This document shows positions 24,808-38,195 of a DNA stretch of 64,000 nucleotides, one piece after another (positions within the stretch are counted from its first letter, which is position 1; each line of letters begins with the position of its first letter). The position numbers were made by a program, and so were the translations under genes. Location of the stretch: NCBI GenBank assembly GCA_004524445.1, contig SDNP01000005.1, forward strand, positions 1-64,000. The letters are read 5' to 3'. The notes below the pieces were generated by a model that was given only the letters and a program-made list of their open reading frames with translations, had not been told where the DNA came from and made no database searches. This DNA comes from Candidatus Thorarchaeota archaeon. GTDB taxonomy: Archaea; Asgardarchaeota; Thorarchaeia; Thorarchaeales; Thorarchaeaceae.

Positions 24808-26886
<2,079 letters not shown>

Positions 26887-30895: not shown

Positions 30896-32806
30896 CTAGT
30901 CCTGAGATTTCTTGCTACGGGATAAAGATTCAATCTCTTCACGGATTTTGCTGATATCTTCCAGCTCGCCTTTCATTTCGAAATCCTCAGCAATTGATTC
31001 GGCTTCTCGAATAGCATCTTCTAATCGCGATATTGCTTTCTTTCTCTCTTCCTCATTTGTCATCTGCTTAATGGATTCCTTCTTCTTGGGCACAAGATTG
31101 AGTATTCCAGCTATTGCATCTCGTGCTTCTTTTTCACTGCTCAAGACATCCACTTGGCTGGATTCAGAAGATTCGATGATTCTCGAAATTTGGTCCTTGA
31201 TTTCTTCGTACTTCATAATTGCTGTTGTAACAAGGGACTCGATTTCCTCTTCATCCCCAATTTCTTCCCTTTTTTTCTGAAGTATTTCTATCTGATTATT
31301 CAAGAAATCCAATCTATCTGATAGCCTGGTTCGCCGTCGTTCTATCCATCTCCACTCATTATCGATTCCCTCGATTAATGAATGAATTTCGCCTACTTTT
31401 TCTCTGTAAGCTTCAAGCTTTGATTTTGCAGATTCCAATGCGGATTCCAGTTCATCTGCGGTATAGGTCAGCTGGTAGCTCAGAATGTGCCCTTCTTGTG
31501 CATCTGATAGGACCCGACTTTCTTTAACGGCTCTTCCTACTCTGTTCCAAAGCTTCTCTACATATTCGTCTTCACGCTCCAGACGACCCTTTTTGTCCAG
31601 TTCGTTTGAAACATCTGAAACCTCTTCAGTTAGATGTTCCAATTCCACGATTTTTGCTTTTAATAGGGCCCTCCCCAGTCGCTCGTTTAGGTCGGTGGTC
31701 ATCCGTTCCCGTTCATCTGGAACCTCCAAGAGAGCATGGGTATTGTCGATTAACAACTGCAAAGCATTTTCGTAGTCAGAGACCGCTTCATGATACTCTT
31801 TCTCTTCAATATGTGCTTCCGCTTCCTTTTGTAATTCAATGGCATCTTCAAGGACATCGTAAGGTGATGTCTTGAGTATGGTAGCTCCCAATCTGCTGTT
31901 TTCAATGGAAGACAAATCGAGGGAGGTCTCACCTACCATCAGACGAATTACACTGATACCTCGATCAGTGGCAATAATCAGCAAATCCCTATCAACAAGG
32001 ACTCTGCGTACCCGAGCGTCTTCTACTTTTATTCGTCCCAAGCGTGACATGCTCTGAAGATCCCAAATGCTGATGAATGAAGAATCTGAAGCAGTAACCA
32101 AGAAGAGGCTATTGGCCCACATAGAGATGATTGTGTTATCATTCTTGCTTTCTAGCTTACCTACCTCTGTCCAATCAATGCGATCCCATAACTTTATTGA
32201 GCCGGTCTTGACCGCCGAGAAGATTAATTCTTCATTCCCAGTCAAAACAGCTCCCTTATCTTTGAGTTCCAATACTGCAAGCTCGACCGGTGCTTCTCCT
32301 TCCTTCATTTGGTATGCACGTGCATCGTCCTTGGCAGTAGAGATGCAAACGAGATTCTTGTCCGCCCAGAGACTAGTAACATCCGATTTGTAAAGTTGCC
32401 AACTAGAAGTCTCATGGCTGTCCTTTCTAATCGATACTAACCGGCCCTCTTTCGCACCTACATATAGATAGTCACCTCTCAGAGCGGAAGTAACAGCATC
32501 ATAAGCAAGTTCAAACCAACCTGTCATCCCCCACCCGCTCTTTTTCCAAACGTAAACCCGGTTCTCACAAGTGGCATAGACCTGCTCCTCATCAACGTGC
32601 ACGGCCAGGGGCGCAGAGTTGGTTTCTCCCAGCACTACTTCTTCTTCCCAGTCTTCTTTAGTCCAGGCGCGAATCTTCAAGTCAGAGCATGCAGCATACA
32701 AGTATTCTTCATCTTGATTCAAGTATGTAACGTCCACATCCAGTGAAGCTATTGACTCGAAGGTTAGCTGCAGCTCTTCAGCCTTCGTTGGTTGGGCATT
32801 TGACAT
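30896..32806 (-). CDS. WD40 beta-propeller + MIT/TPR-like helical bundle + C-terminal coiled coil
   Basis: WD-like blades in the first ~290 aa (ACSDLKIRAW, CENRVYVW, TGSIKLWD, SDSSFISIWD), then DAIELQKEAEAHIEEKEYHEAVSDYENALQLL, then about 250 aa of E/K/R-rich heptads. Confidence 0.8.
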   Translation of the reverse strand: MSNAQPTKAEELQLTFESIASLDVDVTYLNQDEEYLYAACSDLKIRAWTKEDWEEEVVLGETNSAPLAVHVDEEQVYATCENRVYVWKKSGWGMTGWFELAYDAVTSALRGDYLYVGAKEGRLVSIRKDSHETSSWQLYKSDVTSLWADKNLVCISTAKDDARAYQMKEGEAPVELAVLELKDKGAVLTGNEELIFSAVKTGSIKLWDRIDWTEVGKLESKNDNTIISMWANSLFLVTASDSSFISIWDLQSMSRLGRIKVEDARVRRVLVDRDLLIIATDRGISVIRLMVGETSLDLSSIENSRLGATILKTSPYDVLEDAIELQKEAEAHIEEKEYHEAVSDYENALQLLIDNTHALLEVPDERERMTTDLNERLGRALLKAKIVELEHLTEEVSDVSNELDKKGRLEREDEYVEKLWNRVGRAVKESRVLSDAQEGHILSYQLTYTADELESALESAKSKLEAYREKVGEIHSLIEGIDNEWRWIERRRTRLSDRLDFLNNQIEILQKKREEIGDEEEIESLVTTAIMKYEEIKDQISRIIESSESSQVDVLSSEKEARDAIAGILNLVPKKKESIKQMTNEEERKKAISRLEDAIREAESIAEDFEMKGELEDISKIREEIESLSRSKKSQD

Positions 32807-32958
32807 ATTCTTTCAACCGTAATTCGAATTGTGGCTACTCCTTTCGTCTATTGGAGGAATAGAAAAACCTGTTTAAAGTTACTGTGGTAAGCAAAAAATC
32901 GGCTTTTCATTTCATGAGGCATATTTTCGCCACTTAACTCCATCGAAACAGCAAGGGA

Positions 32959-33028
32959 TTATATAGAGGCAGAACAGACTTAAAACCAATGAAGACAAAC
33001 AAGATTTGTTTGACTAAAAATAAGGAGG
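32959..33028 (+). promoter_or_regulatory. Putative TATA box (TTATATA, 32959-32965) and Shine-Dalgarno (AGGAGG, 33023-33028) of the tubulin-like operon
   Basis: Located in the 229-nt divergent intergenic region. The SD lies 7 nt before the TTG at 33036. Confidence 0.5.
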
Positions 33029-33035
33029 AACTTCC

Positions 33036-35723
33036 TTGGATAGCAACAAATGGAGACGAGAGCTTGACCGCCTCTCCGAAATGAAAAGCATGCTTGTCAT
33101 TCTAAACCCTGCTCTTGAGGAGCAGACTAGCAGACAGCTCAGAGGACTTTATGATATCTTTGCAGAGTTGACTAGGCTGGAAAAAGAACTCAAGGATGCA
33201 GGATTTCTCAAAAAACGAAAGGTCAGTTCGCAAGTCGAGGACGCTGAAAAGAATTTAGAAGAAGAATTCATGCGAATCGTCAGAGATTTTGGTGAATTAC
33301 TGAGAATGGAACATCGCAGAACTTTATCAATCAGAGAAAAACTACAGTCCTACAAACCAGCTGAAACAAAGAAACTGCTGACCATGAGTATGCCGTCGAT
33401 TGGAGCGGGAGATCTAACAGATTTCCAGAACCTATATGATTTTGCAAAGAATTTCTCCGAATTATACAAAATGTTGCACAAGGACTTGGCAAGTCAGGCT
33501 AAGGAACTCTTAGACGAAAATAAGCGCATAGTTGAAACTTATGAAAGACACGTGACAATTGACCGTGGAGAAGTTTCCACAACAATCTCTACTGAAAATG
33601 TCGTCGGTCTTGCTATCGCTGAATTGATGATCCTCATGGAGAAGATTCAGAATGAAAGAGTCTATCTAGACGGAAGAAAGGACGAAGTCGGAAGGATGCT
33701 AAGTGCATCTCTTATGAGCGATATCGATTCACTTCAAGCATCGGTTGATACAGCAACCAAACTTGGACTCGATCTTCCAATGGATTTCTCCCAAAAGATC
33801 AGAGTACTAGCTCGAGATTCCTCTCAGGCGGAAAATCTTACATCCCTATTGAGTTTGGAAAGTCAGCTCCATTCTCTGCGGCTCCAGATGGCCAGTATTT
33901 TGCAGGATAGGATTATCAATAGCAAACACGAAGTCACCTCTAGTATCGTTGAGGGAGGGATTCCCACTAGCTCGGATGTAATACCTCAACCTCCTGCGGT
34001 TTCCACGGAGGATCAAGATGTTCCCTCATTATTATCATCCTATCAAGAGATGGTTGAGTGGGAGTCGCAAGTCAAGATTGCCCTCAAAGATAAGGTTGAG
34101 GAAACACTTGATGAAGTCGAGAAAGCTACTGACTATCCAGAAGATACAGGTATAGATGACATAGTTGCGGTTAGACAATTTGTTGCGGATTCTAAAGGCG
34201 AGCTTGAGAATGCGGGCATCGAAGACATGATCCGCATATATATCGATGCTGAAAAGCGCCAAGAAGCCTACAGAAAGAACCTGACAGAAGAAATCAGGGG
34301 CTATATGACGAGATTCAATGAACTTGCTACCTCTGCTGATAGAGTATTGGATTACGCTCAGCTTTCCAAGAAAGCTCCGAAGGTCGAGGACCTCGAGGGA
34401 GGAGTCATCTATTTGCACCAGTCACTTGTGAATCTAAGAAACACAGTTGAAAGCGGTGTCGCTACCTTTAGGGAAGCATGTGAACAGGAGATTGATGCAA
34501 TTATCCAGGATTTGCAGACCATCAAACCAGCATATGCGGAGATCTTCATGCCATTAATAGTCAAACTGGATGAAGGTAAAGCCGGCATTGAGAAGCTTGA
34601 TGAGTTTTCTGAAATCCGTAGTGAAATGCGAACTATCAAGGACTCGATTCTTGCAGATGCGAAAGATGCCCTTGAGAATTTGAGATACAGACTAGGAGTA
34701 AAAATCAGGCTGGCAGCTGCAAAACTCATGGGTGCGGGAGTCGAGATGCCTCCAGAAGTCCAAGAAGCTATCAGTGAGTTAAACAATATTGGAGTAGTAG
34801 CAGACACTGTATTCAGTCTTCCTGCAAAAGCCCGAAAGATGGTTGAGATATATGAAAAGAAAATCACTGGAAAGGTAATCGATAAACTCAATGAAGAGGT
34901 TGACGAACTAACAAAGTCTTTTGAACGCGCAGCACTAGTTGGTGTGGACTTGAATGAAGAGTTGGCAATCCTCTATAATCTACAGGAGAATCCTCCCGAT
35001 GAACTGGAGGATGCCGCAGATGCTTTCGATAAATTGTCAGCCCTTACAACATCTGAATCGATTCAGACAAAGATCATTGAAAGAGCAAATGAAGCACACA
35101 GGCAAATCAAGGATGCTGTTTCAATTTTCGAGGAACAGGGAATGCCCGACTTTGTAAAACGCCTGAAGGCCCTATTGGAGAAGGTCCCAAAGACCCTGGA
35201 GCAAGAATCAAAATATGTGACTGAAGCGCTAGATGTATGTCTCACCTTAGCTAACATCCAAGATGAAATGCTGGGTGTCATTAAGGACATTGCAAAGAAA
35301 GACAGAGAAGAATATGAAACGAAAATCAAGGAAGAAAGCAACTACTACTCAACAATTATGCGAGTATATAAGAAGCATCCAGAGGAGTTCAGCAAGCACA
35401 TTTTCCCAATGACCAAGATGTTGTCAACTGAAGAAAATCTATCTGAAGAAGGGAGACTCGATAAGGCACTCGAGTACTTCAATGAGTTAGAGAAAATGAA
35501 AGAAGACTGGATGGATAAAGCGTCTACCATGGACCAATGGCACAAGACGCTTCGAATGTACATGAGTGGATTCAGTGCATCAGCAAGTGCTGATGATAGA
35601 GCTAAGTTCATGGAAGATGCAAAGAGAAAAATCAAAGAAACATATAGTCGAGAGGACATAAGCACATATTTGACTTGGGCACTTGAAGAGATTGTTCAGA
35701 CAATGATGGAGAAAAGAGGATAG
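33036..35723 (+). CDS. 895-aa all-alpha helical-repeat/coiled-coil rod protein of unknown function
   Basis: No enzyme motif or TM segment. Amphipathic helices throughout, with recurring turn motifs (KLGLDLP, GAGVEMP, LVGVDL, EQGMP; LQSYKPA/LQTIKPA). Good SD. Confidence 0.85.
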   Translation: MDSNKWRRELDRLSEMKSMLVILNPALEEQTSRQLRGLYDIFAELTRLEKELKDAGFLKKRKVSSQVEDAEKNLEEEFMRIVRDFGELLRMEHRRTLSIREKLQSYKPAETKKLLTMSMPSIGAGDLTDFQNLYDFAKNFSELYKMLHKDLASQAKELLDENKRIVETYERHVTIDRGEVSTTISTENVVGLAIAELMILMEKIQNERVYLDGRKDEVGRMLSASLMSDIDSLQASVDTATKLGLDLPMDFSQKIRVLARDSSQAENLTSLLSLESQLHSLRLQMASILQDRIINSKHEVTSSIVEGGIPTSSDVIPQPPAVSTEDQDVPSLLSSYQEMVEWESQVKIALKDKVEETLDEVEKATDYPEDTGIDDIVAVRQFVADSKGELENAGIEDMIRIYIDAEKRQEAYRKNLTEEIRGYMTRFNELATSADRVLDYAQLSKKAPKVEDLEGGVIYLHQSLVNLRNTVESGVATFREACEQEIDAIIQDLQTIKPAYAEIFMPLIVKLDEGKAGIEKLDEFSEIRSEMRTIKDSILADAKDALENLRYRLGVKIRLAAAKLMGAGVEMPPEVQEAISELNNIGVVADTVFSLPAKARKMVEIYEKKITGKVIDKLNEEVDELTKSFERAALVGVDLNEELAILYNLQENPPDELEDAADAFDKLSALTTSESIQTKIIERANEAHRQIKDAVSIFEEQGMPDFVKRLKALLEKVPKTLEQESKYVTEALDVCLTLANIQDEMLGVIKDIAKKDREEYETKIKEESNYYSTIMRVYKKHPEEFSKHIFPMTKMLSTEENLSEEGRLDKALEYFNELEKMKEDWMDKASTMDQWHKTLRMYMSGFSASASADDRAKFMEDAKRKIKETYSREDISTYLTWALEEIVQTMMEKRG

Positions 35724-35740
35724 GAAAGGAGAATTAGCTG

Positions 35741-37141
35741 ATGGTATCAAACAGCGCAATCAGGCTTGATGATGAAGCAACGAAAGCTGCAGAGGTGTTC
35801 GCCATTGGAATTGGAGAGTGCGGTTCAAACATTGTGGGATCGTACCTGAAAACGAGTCGGGATAAGAAATTACCCTCAAGAGTACGAGGATATCTCTTGA
35901 TGAACACCGACAGGGCAGACCTAACTAAAGTTCGTTCCAAATATGGCATACCAAAAGAGCATACGCTACTCTATGGTGCCAGCGAAATAGGTGTTGGCGG
36001 AAGGTTCATGGAGGGCTATAATGCAATCCCAGAATCAAAGGACATTATATTCGACCAATTGAGTAATCTAGGATTCGAAGGAGTTTCAGGCTTCTCAATA
36101 TTCACGAGTCTTGGCGGAGGCACAGGCTGTGGAGGAACTCCCGCCCTCATTGAGGCCTTGAAACAGAGATTTCAGGAAGAAGAAGGCAGACGTATTTTCG
36201 TTTATGTGATAGGAGTCCTGCCGTTCGAAGGACAATCAAGCGAAGCTCTAAACTCAATCTGGGCGGTTAGCAAGCTCCTTCGGGCTCAGCTTCAAGAGCG
36301 AGGTGCAGATCTAACCATTCTACTAAGTAACCGCACCATGTTGAAGAGGATTCTTCAATCCAGAAAGACAGATAGTGTCGACTATCTGCAGCGAGAACTC
36401 GATGTGGATATAGCAAATATTGATTCTATAGAAACAATGGTTCCTTCAACCCTTGACGAATCGAGCGCCATACAAGAGAGGACAGAACAGGCCTTTGTCG
36501 AACTCGTTAATCCGCTTGCAGTTGATGTTATTGAAGCGATGCTATCCCCAGGAGTCTATGAGGCGAACAAAGACGTTTTTCCGACCACAGACCTTGCAGA
36601 TTATTCTAGAAAACTGGACCCAGTAGTAGTTCCAGCCCTCTATACTGACATCGGTCTTATTCCTGATGCGGGAAGCATGCGCAACCAGCTGAAAGCTATG
36701 ATAGATTATGCAGTGAAGGAAACCTCTTACGCTGATGTAGGCGAGGAACCGAATGCGGAGAGCGTTTACTATGTGCTCAGTGGTTCCAGACATATCAGCA
36801 AAGCTGAGTACGGTATGCACTTGAAGGAGGCACTGGATAAATTCATAGCTCCTGGCGCAGCAATTACTCCCTGTTACGTTCAATACCATGAAGAGAACCC
36901 ACCCACAAATCTTCTACTGCTACTGGGCCTACCCAAAATCCCAGAACTAGTACAAATAATCAATGAAGCGACACAATTGGTAAATCTCCATAGTGGAGCT
37001 TCACCTCTGAAACAGAGCTGGTTCCAGAGGTCCAAGGGAACAACAAGAAAAGAGCTGGTGAATGCAATAGCGGACTTTCGAGAGCTTTTCAGTTACTACA
37101 TGACACCAGGTTCTGGAGATAATCTCGAGCAGGGTGTGTAA
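35741..37141 (+). CDS. Divergent tubulin/FtsZ-superfamily GTPase
   Basis: T1 IGIGECGSNI, T2 MNTD, T3 GVGG, T4 GFSIFTSLGGGTGCG, T5 GVLPF, ALNS, T6 LSN, T7 TTDLADY. AGGAG SD upstream. Confidence 0.93.
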   Translation: MVSNSAIRLDDEATKAAEVFAIGIGECGSNIVGSYLKTSRDKKLPSRVRGYLLMNTDRADLTKVRSKYGIPKEHTLLYGASEIGVGGRFMEGYNAIPESKDIIFDQLSNLGFEGVSGFSIFTSLGGGTGCGGTPALIEALKQRFQEEEGRRIFVYVIGVLPFEGQSSEALNSIWAVSKLLRAQLQERGADLTILLSNRTMLKRILQSRKTDSVDYLQRELDVDIANIDSIETMVPSTLDESSAIQERTEQAFVELVNPLAVDVIEAMLSPGVYEANKDVFPTTDLADYSRKLDPVVVPALYTDIGLIPDAGSMRNQLKAMIDYAVKETSYADVGEEPNAESVYYVLSGSRHISKAEYGMHLKEALDKFIAPGAAITPCYVQYHEENPPTNLLLLLGLPKIPELVQIINEATQLVNLHSGASPLKQSWFQRSKGTTRKELVNAIADFRELFSYYMTPGSGDNLEQGV

Positions 37142-38195
37142 ACGAGTGGGCGAGACTTATCAGCTAGAGGACCTTATTGATAGGCTATTGCTGATTGTCA
37201 CACTGAACTCTACATTAGTTCATTTTCTGATTAGCTCCCAAGTGGAGGGACATTTCGACCCAGATAGAGTTGACTCTCTTACACAGGGTCTCATCAAGAC
37301 CAGGTCATGGATGGAGGAGGCAACTAAGATGGAGGGAGTTCCTTCCTCGACATCCAATATTATGGCACTAATAGTGAAACGCCTGTCTCAAATAGAAAAT
37401 CTACTCCCGAGACTCTCAGAGAAGGCGAAGCAGTTAGAGGCTGCCGAAACTCCCGCCCAGGAAATACTATCGCTTCTTGATGATTCATCGAAATTAGCGG
37501 TAAAAATGGTACAGGAAGATGAAGATGGACAACAGGTTTCACTCGTTAAATCAGAAGAGGAGATACCTCCAGAACCCTATCGGAGAGTAGACGTGGAAGA
37601 TGACGAATTTGGACTGATTGGCCAAACTGAGCGCCTGATTAAGCAGTATTCCAAGCGATGCCATGTATTATTGCCAACCTTTTGGCTAGAAGTAATCAGA
37701 CAGATCCACAAATATCGCTCTGAGTCCCCCTACATTGGCGATGCCATAGAAACCCCAAGCAAAGTGATTGCCAGAATCGTTCGCGGGCTACTGACAGAAG
37801 CCCCAGGAGCAAGACTATTGCAGGACCTGTCGAAACAACGGTCACAAGAGAATATTTTGAATGCGACCGAGATGGAGAGGATAGAGCGGGCTGTTGCAAG
37901 ATACTTCCATGGACTCGAGGGAATCCTCAGCAACAAGGAGCCAAATGTTACCGAGAAAATAAACGAGGCACATTCGGCCTTGGATGGATTCGGTTGGGGA
38001 GGGCCAGAACTTGAAAAGCGCCTTATTAAACGAATTCACCAGCGGTGTGAAGAGGCGCTTGATAACGCAGAGTCAGTTACAGATGAATCTAGACAGGTTG
38101 TCTATGCAGAAATAACAAAGATGCTCTGCAAGCTGCAACATGCAATACTTGCAGAGCCTAGGCTACGGGAAATACTTGCTCTGATGAAACCATAA
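37134..38195 (+). CDS. All-alpha hypothetical protein coupled to the tubulin-like gene
   Basis: Overlaps or abuts the GTPase stop (GTG at 37134 or 37146). Helical N-domain, acidic Pro-containing linker (EEEIPPEPYRRVDVEDDE), helical C-domain. Confidence 0.8.
   Translation: MCKRVGETYQLEDLIDRLLLIVTLNSTLVHFLISSQVEGHFDPDRVDSLTQGLIKTRSWMEEATKMEGVPSSTSNIMALIVKRLSQIENLLPRLSEKAKQLEAAETPAQEILSLLDDSSKLAVKMVQEDEDGQQVSLVKSEEEIPPEPYRRVDVEDDEFGLIGQTERLIKQYSKRCHVLLPTFWLEVIRQIHKYRSESPYIGDAIETPSKVIARIVRGLLTEAPGARLLQDLSKQRSQENILNATEMERIERAVARYFHGLEGILSNKEPNVTEKINEAHSALDGFGWGGPELEKRLIKRIHQRCEEALDNAESVTDESRQVVYAEITKMLCKLQHAILAEPRLREILALMKP

Follow-up and report, generated by a model that had tools for sequence, protein, structure and literature searches.

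What a WD40-type propeller joined to a series of helices does beside a tubulin-like gene operon is the question raised by a locus from a Thorarchaeal genome, within a group of organisms, the Asgard archaea, in which the beginnings of the eukaryotic cytoskeleton and of membrane trafficking are investigated. The locus lies in positions 1 to 64,000 of contig SDNP01000005.1 (forward strand; GenBank assembly GCA_004524445.1, Candidatus Thorarchaeota archaeon), the whole stretch analysed here and referred to as the window, with a G+C content of ∼44%. The gene concerned, P0001, is a minus-strand open reading frame at 30896–32806 that starts at an ATG codon and encodes a product of 636 amino acids comprising a WD40 propeller, a three-helix bundle resembling both tetratricopeptide repeat (TPR) and MIT domains, and a helical rod. 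An earlier note on this DNA, made from the sequence alone, had given the same coordinates and had described an adaptor that could link the neighbouring tubulin-like filament to ESCRT-III (endosomal sorting complex required for transport III) or to membrane coats; the propeller-plus-helical, adaptor-like architecture proves real and conserved in homologues, and the peptide quoted as MIT-like, placed at about 31640–31860, corresponds to residues 319–380 (31667–31852). The account tentatively favoured here makes P0001 a scaffold or adaptor in the cytoplasm, restricted to one Thorarchaeal family and accessory to the Asgard tubulin-like module and not one of its core parts.

The gene is real and under selection, because an alignment of 120 homologues is conserved from end to end, with a mean column identity of 54% and many invariant residues. 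Word-indexed comparison with 5.8 billion proteins retrieved more than 220 full-length relatives of 613–714 amino acids, at 41–50% identity, together with one at 84%; among those with names, nearly all are labelled ‘Candidatus Thorarchaeota’. No Pfam or NCBIfam model describes this family, and P0001 itself has no NCBIfam match. In a profile search of 251 Asgard genomes, the helical region was detected in 44 of the 59 genomes, and 13 of the 16 genera, of its own taxonomic family and in none of 191 genomes from 27 other Asgard families; genus g7 carries a copy with 34% identity that is truncated by the end of its contig and holds the same position beside the operon, and no copy was found by the profile in three g4 genomes (96–99% complete) or in the four g10 genomes searched. 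P0001 is confined to one Thorarchaeal family and dispensable in some of its genera. Five Thorarchaeal homologues of the gene (G203, G024, G040, G016 and G009) each contain one in-frame TGA or TAG, three of them being otherwise full-length (632–633 amino acids) and two having open frames of just 504–529 amino acids; these stops could be assembly errors, pseudogenisation or recoding.

The structure of P0001 was modelled with AlphaFold2 on the homologue alignment (mean predicted local distance difference test score, pLDDT, 86.4). Residues 14–291 (31934–32767, minus strand, as for all features of the protein) form 28 strands arranged as seven four-stranded blades in a closed WD40-type propeller, bearing out the approximately seven blades proposed previously. 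Every Pfam propeller match falls below its gathering score (PF00400, 18.9 against 27 bits; PF25173, 36.6 against 154 bits), and the blade repeats are therefore divergent. A poorly conserved, low-confidence linker follows (residues 292–312; 31871–31933; conservation 0.53, with pLDDT <50 at residues 304–310), and then ten helices of 17–50 residues, of which the first three (315–334, 338–354 and 363–406) build a bundle with an MIT-like fold in the model, residues 313–386 (31649–31870). The third helix is predicted to continue straight into a rod of ∼250 residues (387–636; 30899–31648) made of further, successive antiparallel bundles, its helices spanning 387–406, 413–436, 441–490, 495–516, 520–549, 558–580, 585–608 and 612–633. 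In a separate model of residues 308–636 (pLDDT 87.6; predicted TM-score 0.63) the helices fold back on each other, so that what had been taken for a long coiled coil following the bundle is better described as a rod of antiparallel helical bundles.

Conservation is unevenly distributed along this architecture, as judged by region over the columns of the 120-homologue alignment. It is highest in the motif TSPYDVLE at the junction between linker and bundle (residues 313–320; 31847–31870; conservation 0.99), a near-invariant element that begins helix 1 and in which six of the eight residues (S314, P315, Y316, D317, L319 and E320) are invariant, with T313 and V318 at 0.97–0.98. The loop between helices 2 and 3 of the bundle, DNTHALLEVP, is long and nearly invariant (0.85), and is accompanied by the first half of helix 3 (0.81), by propeller blades 2–4, the most conserved of the seven (0.80–0.83), and by the bundle as a whole (0.77); the rod scores 0.62 overall and its last helix 0.37. 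Conserved polar residues in helices 2 and 3 comprise E346, Q350, D354, N355, E365, R366, N374, R376 and K385. Peaks at blades 2–4, the junction and the bundle fit two interaction modules followed by a more freely evolving rod: the propeller face and the three-helix bundle would each bind partners by taking up peptides or helices, and the less conserved rod would act as a spacer or as an element of self-association.

Candidate partners for such modules lie on the opposite strand, beyond a divergent intergenic region of 229 bp (32807–33035), in an operon of three plus-strand genes. The first encodes an 895-amino-acid, all-helical protein (33036–35723) assigned to no Pfam or NCBIfam family in library scans and with homologues beside the tubulin-like gene in six Asgard families; the second a tubulin/FtsZ-superfamily GTPase of 466 amino acids (35741–37141; PF00091, E 9e-20), whose closest solved proteins are CetZ structures (PDB 4b46, 3zid and 4b45); and the third a protein of 353 amino acids (37134–38195), of no known family in the same scans and conserved with the operon. 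The tubulin-like gene that had been called adjacent is thus present, two genes away and on the other strand. Across the family, the P0001 gene adjoins the operon divergently, ∼230 bp from its start, in 14 of 16 genera, despite identities of 34–50%; the layout also occurs in Thorarchaeota whose P0001 is just ∼45% identical, and the spacing matches in many genomes. The likeliest clients of P0001 would be the products of this operon, namely the 895-residue helical protein, the CetZ-like tubulin and the 353-residue protein, with P0001 as a lineage-specific accessory factor of the module they constitute.

The operon has a much longer history than its neighbour. At least six Asgard families (loci L052–L060) have kept the genes for a ∼900-residue helical protein, a CetZ-like tubulin and a ∼355-residue protein side by side, with none missing, and in the five families beyond that of P0001 the tubulin-like protein is 43–71% identical, the 895-residue protein 22–41% and the 353-residue protein 23–41%. 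The operon is accordingly much older than the P0001 gene, which was added next to an ancient Asgard tubulin-like module.

Several observations weigh against a functional tie between the two. The five other Asgard families carry unrelated housekeeping genes upstream of the operon, and in one g4 genome (L052) and one g10 genome (L053) the syntenic sites retain the whole operon, together with the flanking TPR and molybdenum-oxidoreductase-like genes, and lack the WD40 gene. Genes for a coenzyme A ligase, RidA, the TPR protein and the molybdenum oxidoreductase hold their places across the family too; with gene order so broadly kept, the adjacency of P0001 and the operon is weak evidence of shared function. 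The tubulin-like protein, moreover, is unusually constrained, being 80–89% identical across the family against 41–50% for P0001, so that constraint on the two proteins is unequal. The earlier note's proposed link to the tubulin-like filament keeps the adjacency seen in most genera, set against an operon that does without P0001 in two genera and in five other families; gene order within one taxonomic family is weak evidence for it.

The same observations feed the alternative that survives best, in which P0001 would be a generic WD40–TPR scaffold, helping, for example, to assemble another complex or to control its quality, and its position next to the operon would be inherited gene order. This is itself doubtful. 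Collinearity of the entire region among Thorarchaeota, the genera that lack the gene and retain the operon, the greater age and spread of the operon, the large gap in sequence conservation between the two proteins and transcription of P0001 from the opposite strand all agree with it; the direct divergent adjacency kept through so much sequence change does not, and no other partner or pathway was pointed to by any search. A role unrelated to the tubulin-like operon is nearly as likely as that of an operon accessory.

Further observations concern the operon products themselves. In the ESM Atlas, the sole named leads for the 895-residue protein point to EzrA, which is spectrin-like and regulates FtsZ in Firmicutes (feature score 0.75; template-modelling, TM, scores 0.18 and 0.33), a weak likeness that is thematically suggestive beside a tubulin-family gene and nonetheless below noise level. 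The extreme C-terminus of the 353-residue protein (38148–38192), LAEPRLREILAxMKP, is conserved both in Thorarchaeota and in distant Asgard families, with forms such as PLEFLLKAMKP and PRLNKLLTDMKV; to the eye, it looks like an amphipathic helix of the MIM1 type (MIT-interacting motif 1) at a protein terminus, and its conservation extends to loci without the WD40 gene. Contigs from a salt-lake metatranscriptome and two sediment metagenomes are 85–99% alike over parts of the 895-residue and tubulin-like genes and skip the body of the P0001 gene (31136–32555), a gap that says nothing about expression of the latter. Those from the metatranscriptome are short, mostly 95–99% alike, and derive from a close relative over 33047–37139, where carry-over of DNA is possible.

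Whether the tubulin-like module is coupled through P0001 to ESCRT-III depends on the nature of the three-helix bundle, for which the earlier note had recognised an MIT pattern by eye. At the level of fold this recognition is sound: a compact bundle of three helices and ∼70–80 residues, as expected of MIT domains, is modelled in P0001, and it overlays complete MIT domains at 1.7–2.4 Å (2w2u_B, 2v6x_A at 22% identity, 2cpt, 4a5x_B and 5lb7_B). The up–down–up arrangement of ∼75 residues is the one found in the MIT domains of Vps4/CdvC, katanin p60 and MITD1 (PF04212; 2w2u, 2v6x, 5lb7, 4a5x), and in shape the predicted bundle is indistinguishable from them. It is nevertheless atypical in being internal and not terminal, in a third helix of 44 residues that runs on into the next bundle, and in the long, near-invariant loop between helices 2 and 3. 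The fold is also not exclusive to the MIT family, the original MIT structure paper by Scott and colleagues in 2005 having reportedly described the domain as resembling the first three helices of a TPR protein.

By sequence, the balance tips to TPR over MIT. The Pfam MIT model (PF04212) matches the whole protein at 16.9 bits and the excised segment at 20.6 bits, below the cut-off of 30, although the match spans model positions 1–60/61 of 66 and all three helices; TPR_2 scores 19.4 bits, the Pfam TPR matches likewise lying below their cut-offs. Across the 120 family members, TPR_2 matches 71 and MIT 45 (E ≤1). Compared with PDB sequences, the family profile ranks consensus TPR designs first and places Vps4B MIT domains at E 0.14–0.43, while the single P0001 sequence finds P58IPK at E 4.7e-4, CTPR3 at E 1e-3 and the calpain-7 MIT domain at E 3. 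The TPR is a 34-residue helix–turn–helix with the consensus G8, Y11, A20, F24, A27 and P32, and in HMMER alignments the family consensus KKGDxxYQEGxFHEAVxEYENALQxLIDN falls on TPR positions 8 to 34, retaining G8, G15, an aromatic residue at 17, A20, V/I21, Y24, A27 and L28, with Pro32 replaced by Ile. Helices 315–334 and 338–354 thereby constitute one TPR-type motif and the first half of helix 363–406 a capping helix; the later helices have no TPR match, and an array of at least three motifs forming a superhelix, as in tandem TPR proteins, is absent from P0001.

A profile of residues 308–636, run against 1.84 billion representative proteins, recovered the family and then solely multi-repeat proteins aligned at profile positions ∼13–70, every one of those checked being a TPR array; this search returned no Vps4- or MIT-type protein and no remote homologue of the rod. 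Some of the TPR arrays cross-match the Pfam MIT model at 28–36 bits, and a match of 17–21 bits cannot, therefore, separate MIT from TPR. One of the arrays, P0168, in which a WD40 region precedes repeats of the same TPR-like motif, was rejected as a look-alike in architecture and not a relative of P0001. Against the Vps4 MIT domains of 30 Thorarchaeal genomes, hhalign gave a marginal alignment of the segment (P 0.009; probability 4.5%; 33 columns, helices 1–2). Vps4 of this genome (contig 57, 407 amino acids) itself scores 26–29.6 bits on the MIT model, so that a genuine MIT domain is also sub-threshold and a low score alone does not exclude one; P0001 is the second-best match genome-wide, after Vps4. 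Our reading is that the segment is one TPR motif plus capping helix, an arrangement that has the MIT fold, its membership of the MIT family being not established. Of the MIT pattern seen by eye, the fold and a sub-threshold profile match thus stand, with TPR models matching more family members and TPR chains having the better E-values among PDB sequences.

A true MIT domain at residues ∼313–386, binding the C-terminal MIM helices of the ESCRT-III proteins and so tying these to the tubulin-like filament or a coat, is improbable. Beyond the fold and the nearly full-length Pfam match, it draws on the many conserved polar residues of helices 2 and 3 and on a candidate ligand, the Vps4-linked ESCRT-III, whose C-terminus across 28 Thorarchaeal genomes carries the conserved MIM1-like motif LEExIKSLExELG. 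Against it stand the equal or better scores of TPR models and chains, the internal position of the bundle and the placement of the ESCRT genes, which are unlinked to P0001: contig 57 (L004:644–2682) carries Vps4 with one ESCRT-III, and contig 62 (L008:1456–2106) a second ESCRT-III. When the bundle was modelled in complex with the last 68 residues of the Vps4-linked ESCRT-III, the score was 0.01–0.02 against a mark of 0.32, a result that counts neither for nor against binding. The searches yielded nothing in favour of the ESCRT-III link of P0001, and its interpretation as an MIT/ESCRT adaptor is unproven. Quite unlikely as well is the broader proposition that the bundle is a working MIT-type module docking a MIM-like C-terminal helix of either ESCRT-III or the 353-residue protein.

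Structural comparisons also extended beyond the bundle. In a whole-model VIA search, the propeller fitted any WD40 protein equally well, with those of α-COP and β′-COP among the good matches; all but one of the top rows aligned the propeller region alone, and no chain covered both parts. The exception, 5wlc_LQ, ran to residue 501 at a root-mean-square deviation of 25.7 Å, which is no meaningful superposition. Foldseek comparison of the C-terminal model with the PDB returned nothing at E ≤0.001 (TM ≤0.21; TPR and solenoid chains at E ≥0.01), and ESM Atlas shape and feature searches with residues 308–636 gave weak rows alone (TM by query ≤0.43; feature score ≤0.84). The best matches of the rod, still weak, are tandem spectrin repeats: 1cun, 1s35 and 5j1h align over 154–157 residues at 4.7–4.9 Å, and 1u4q over 231 residues. 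That P0001 is a protocoatomer-type coat or tethering subunit related to components of COPI, clathrin or HOPS/CORVET is very improbable, since, apart from the order of propeller then helical region and the COPI propellers among its matches, the helices are modelled as three-helix bundles and not as a stacked α-solenoid, neither Foldseek nor the Atlas gives them a significant match (TM ≤0.21 in the PDB and ≤0.41 in the Atlas), no coat protein is matched beyond a propeller that fits any WD40 protein, and no membrane-binding element or coat partner lies nearby, so that the protocoatomer layout invoked in the earlier note applies in the loosest sense alone.

Among characterised systems, P0001 shares features with several. 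Katanin p80, α-COP and β′-COP likewise begin with a WD40 propeller of seven blades and continue as an all-helical region, with an implied role as interaction platforms, but the helical part of P0001 is not modelled as a solenoid and shows no kinship with them in sequence or fold beyond a generic propeller; in katanin, the MIT domain resides on p60 and not on the WD40 subunit. Proteins with TPRs and a capping helix, such as the CTPR3 designs and P58IPK/DNAJC3, share the consensus of the P0001 bundle, and TPR arrays are its sole matches outside the family; P0001 differs in having a single motif in place of an array and in its substitution of Pro32. Spectrin-repeat rods, including α-spectrin and the plakin domain of plectin, are built of successive three-helix bundles joined by continuous helices, a build that the model suggests for P0001 as well; its predicted bundles are shorter than the 106-residue spectrin repeat and have no sequence similarity to it. 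Haloarchaeal ‘Halo_adaptin’ ESCRT loci, in which WD40/PQQ-propeller proteins are found together with a homologue of CetZ-like tubulin, set an archaeal precedent (Makarova et al. 2024, PMC10936438). They also encode Ig-like ‘adaptin’ domains and counterparts of the Vps4 ATPase and of ESCRT-III, all three lacking at the P0001 locus, and they are haloarchaeal and not thorarchaeal. A structural cluster of HOPS/CORVET-like propeller–solenoid proteins described in a 2026 preprint includes 34 Thorarchaeia proteins, among which P0001 might belong (bioRxiv 10.64898/2026.10.28.762692). P0001 is an uncharacterised family, but a variant of a common scaffold theme.

Elsewhere in the window, positions 24808–26856 encode a complete bacterial-type NAD-dependent DNA ligase in this Asgard archaeon, with adenylation, OB, zinc-finger, HhH and BRCT domains.

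In practical terms, the bundle of P0001 illustrates that an MIT match made by eye or below threshold is indistinguishable from a single TPR motif, and that a eukaryote-like reading as an ESCRT adaptor should await a binding experiment before it is passed on. Should the bundle turn out to be a working MIT-type module of the kind described, P0001 would physically join the CetZ-like tubulin cytoskeleton of an Asgard archaeon with machinery of the ESCRT type, and so provide an archaeal equivalent of the katanin- and spastin-style linkage between MIT domains and tubulin polymers. The helical region of P0001 is without relatives outside one Thorarchaeal family, and its gene stands beside a tubulin-like operon of several Asgard families; if P0001 is indeed an accessory factor of that module, it would provide a handle on the function and the binding partners of the Asgard CetZ-like polymer.

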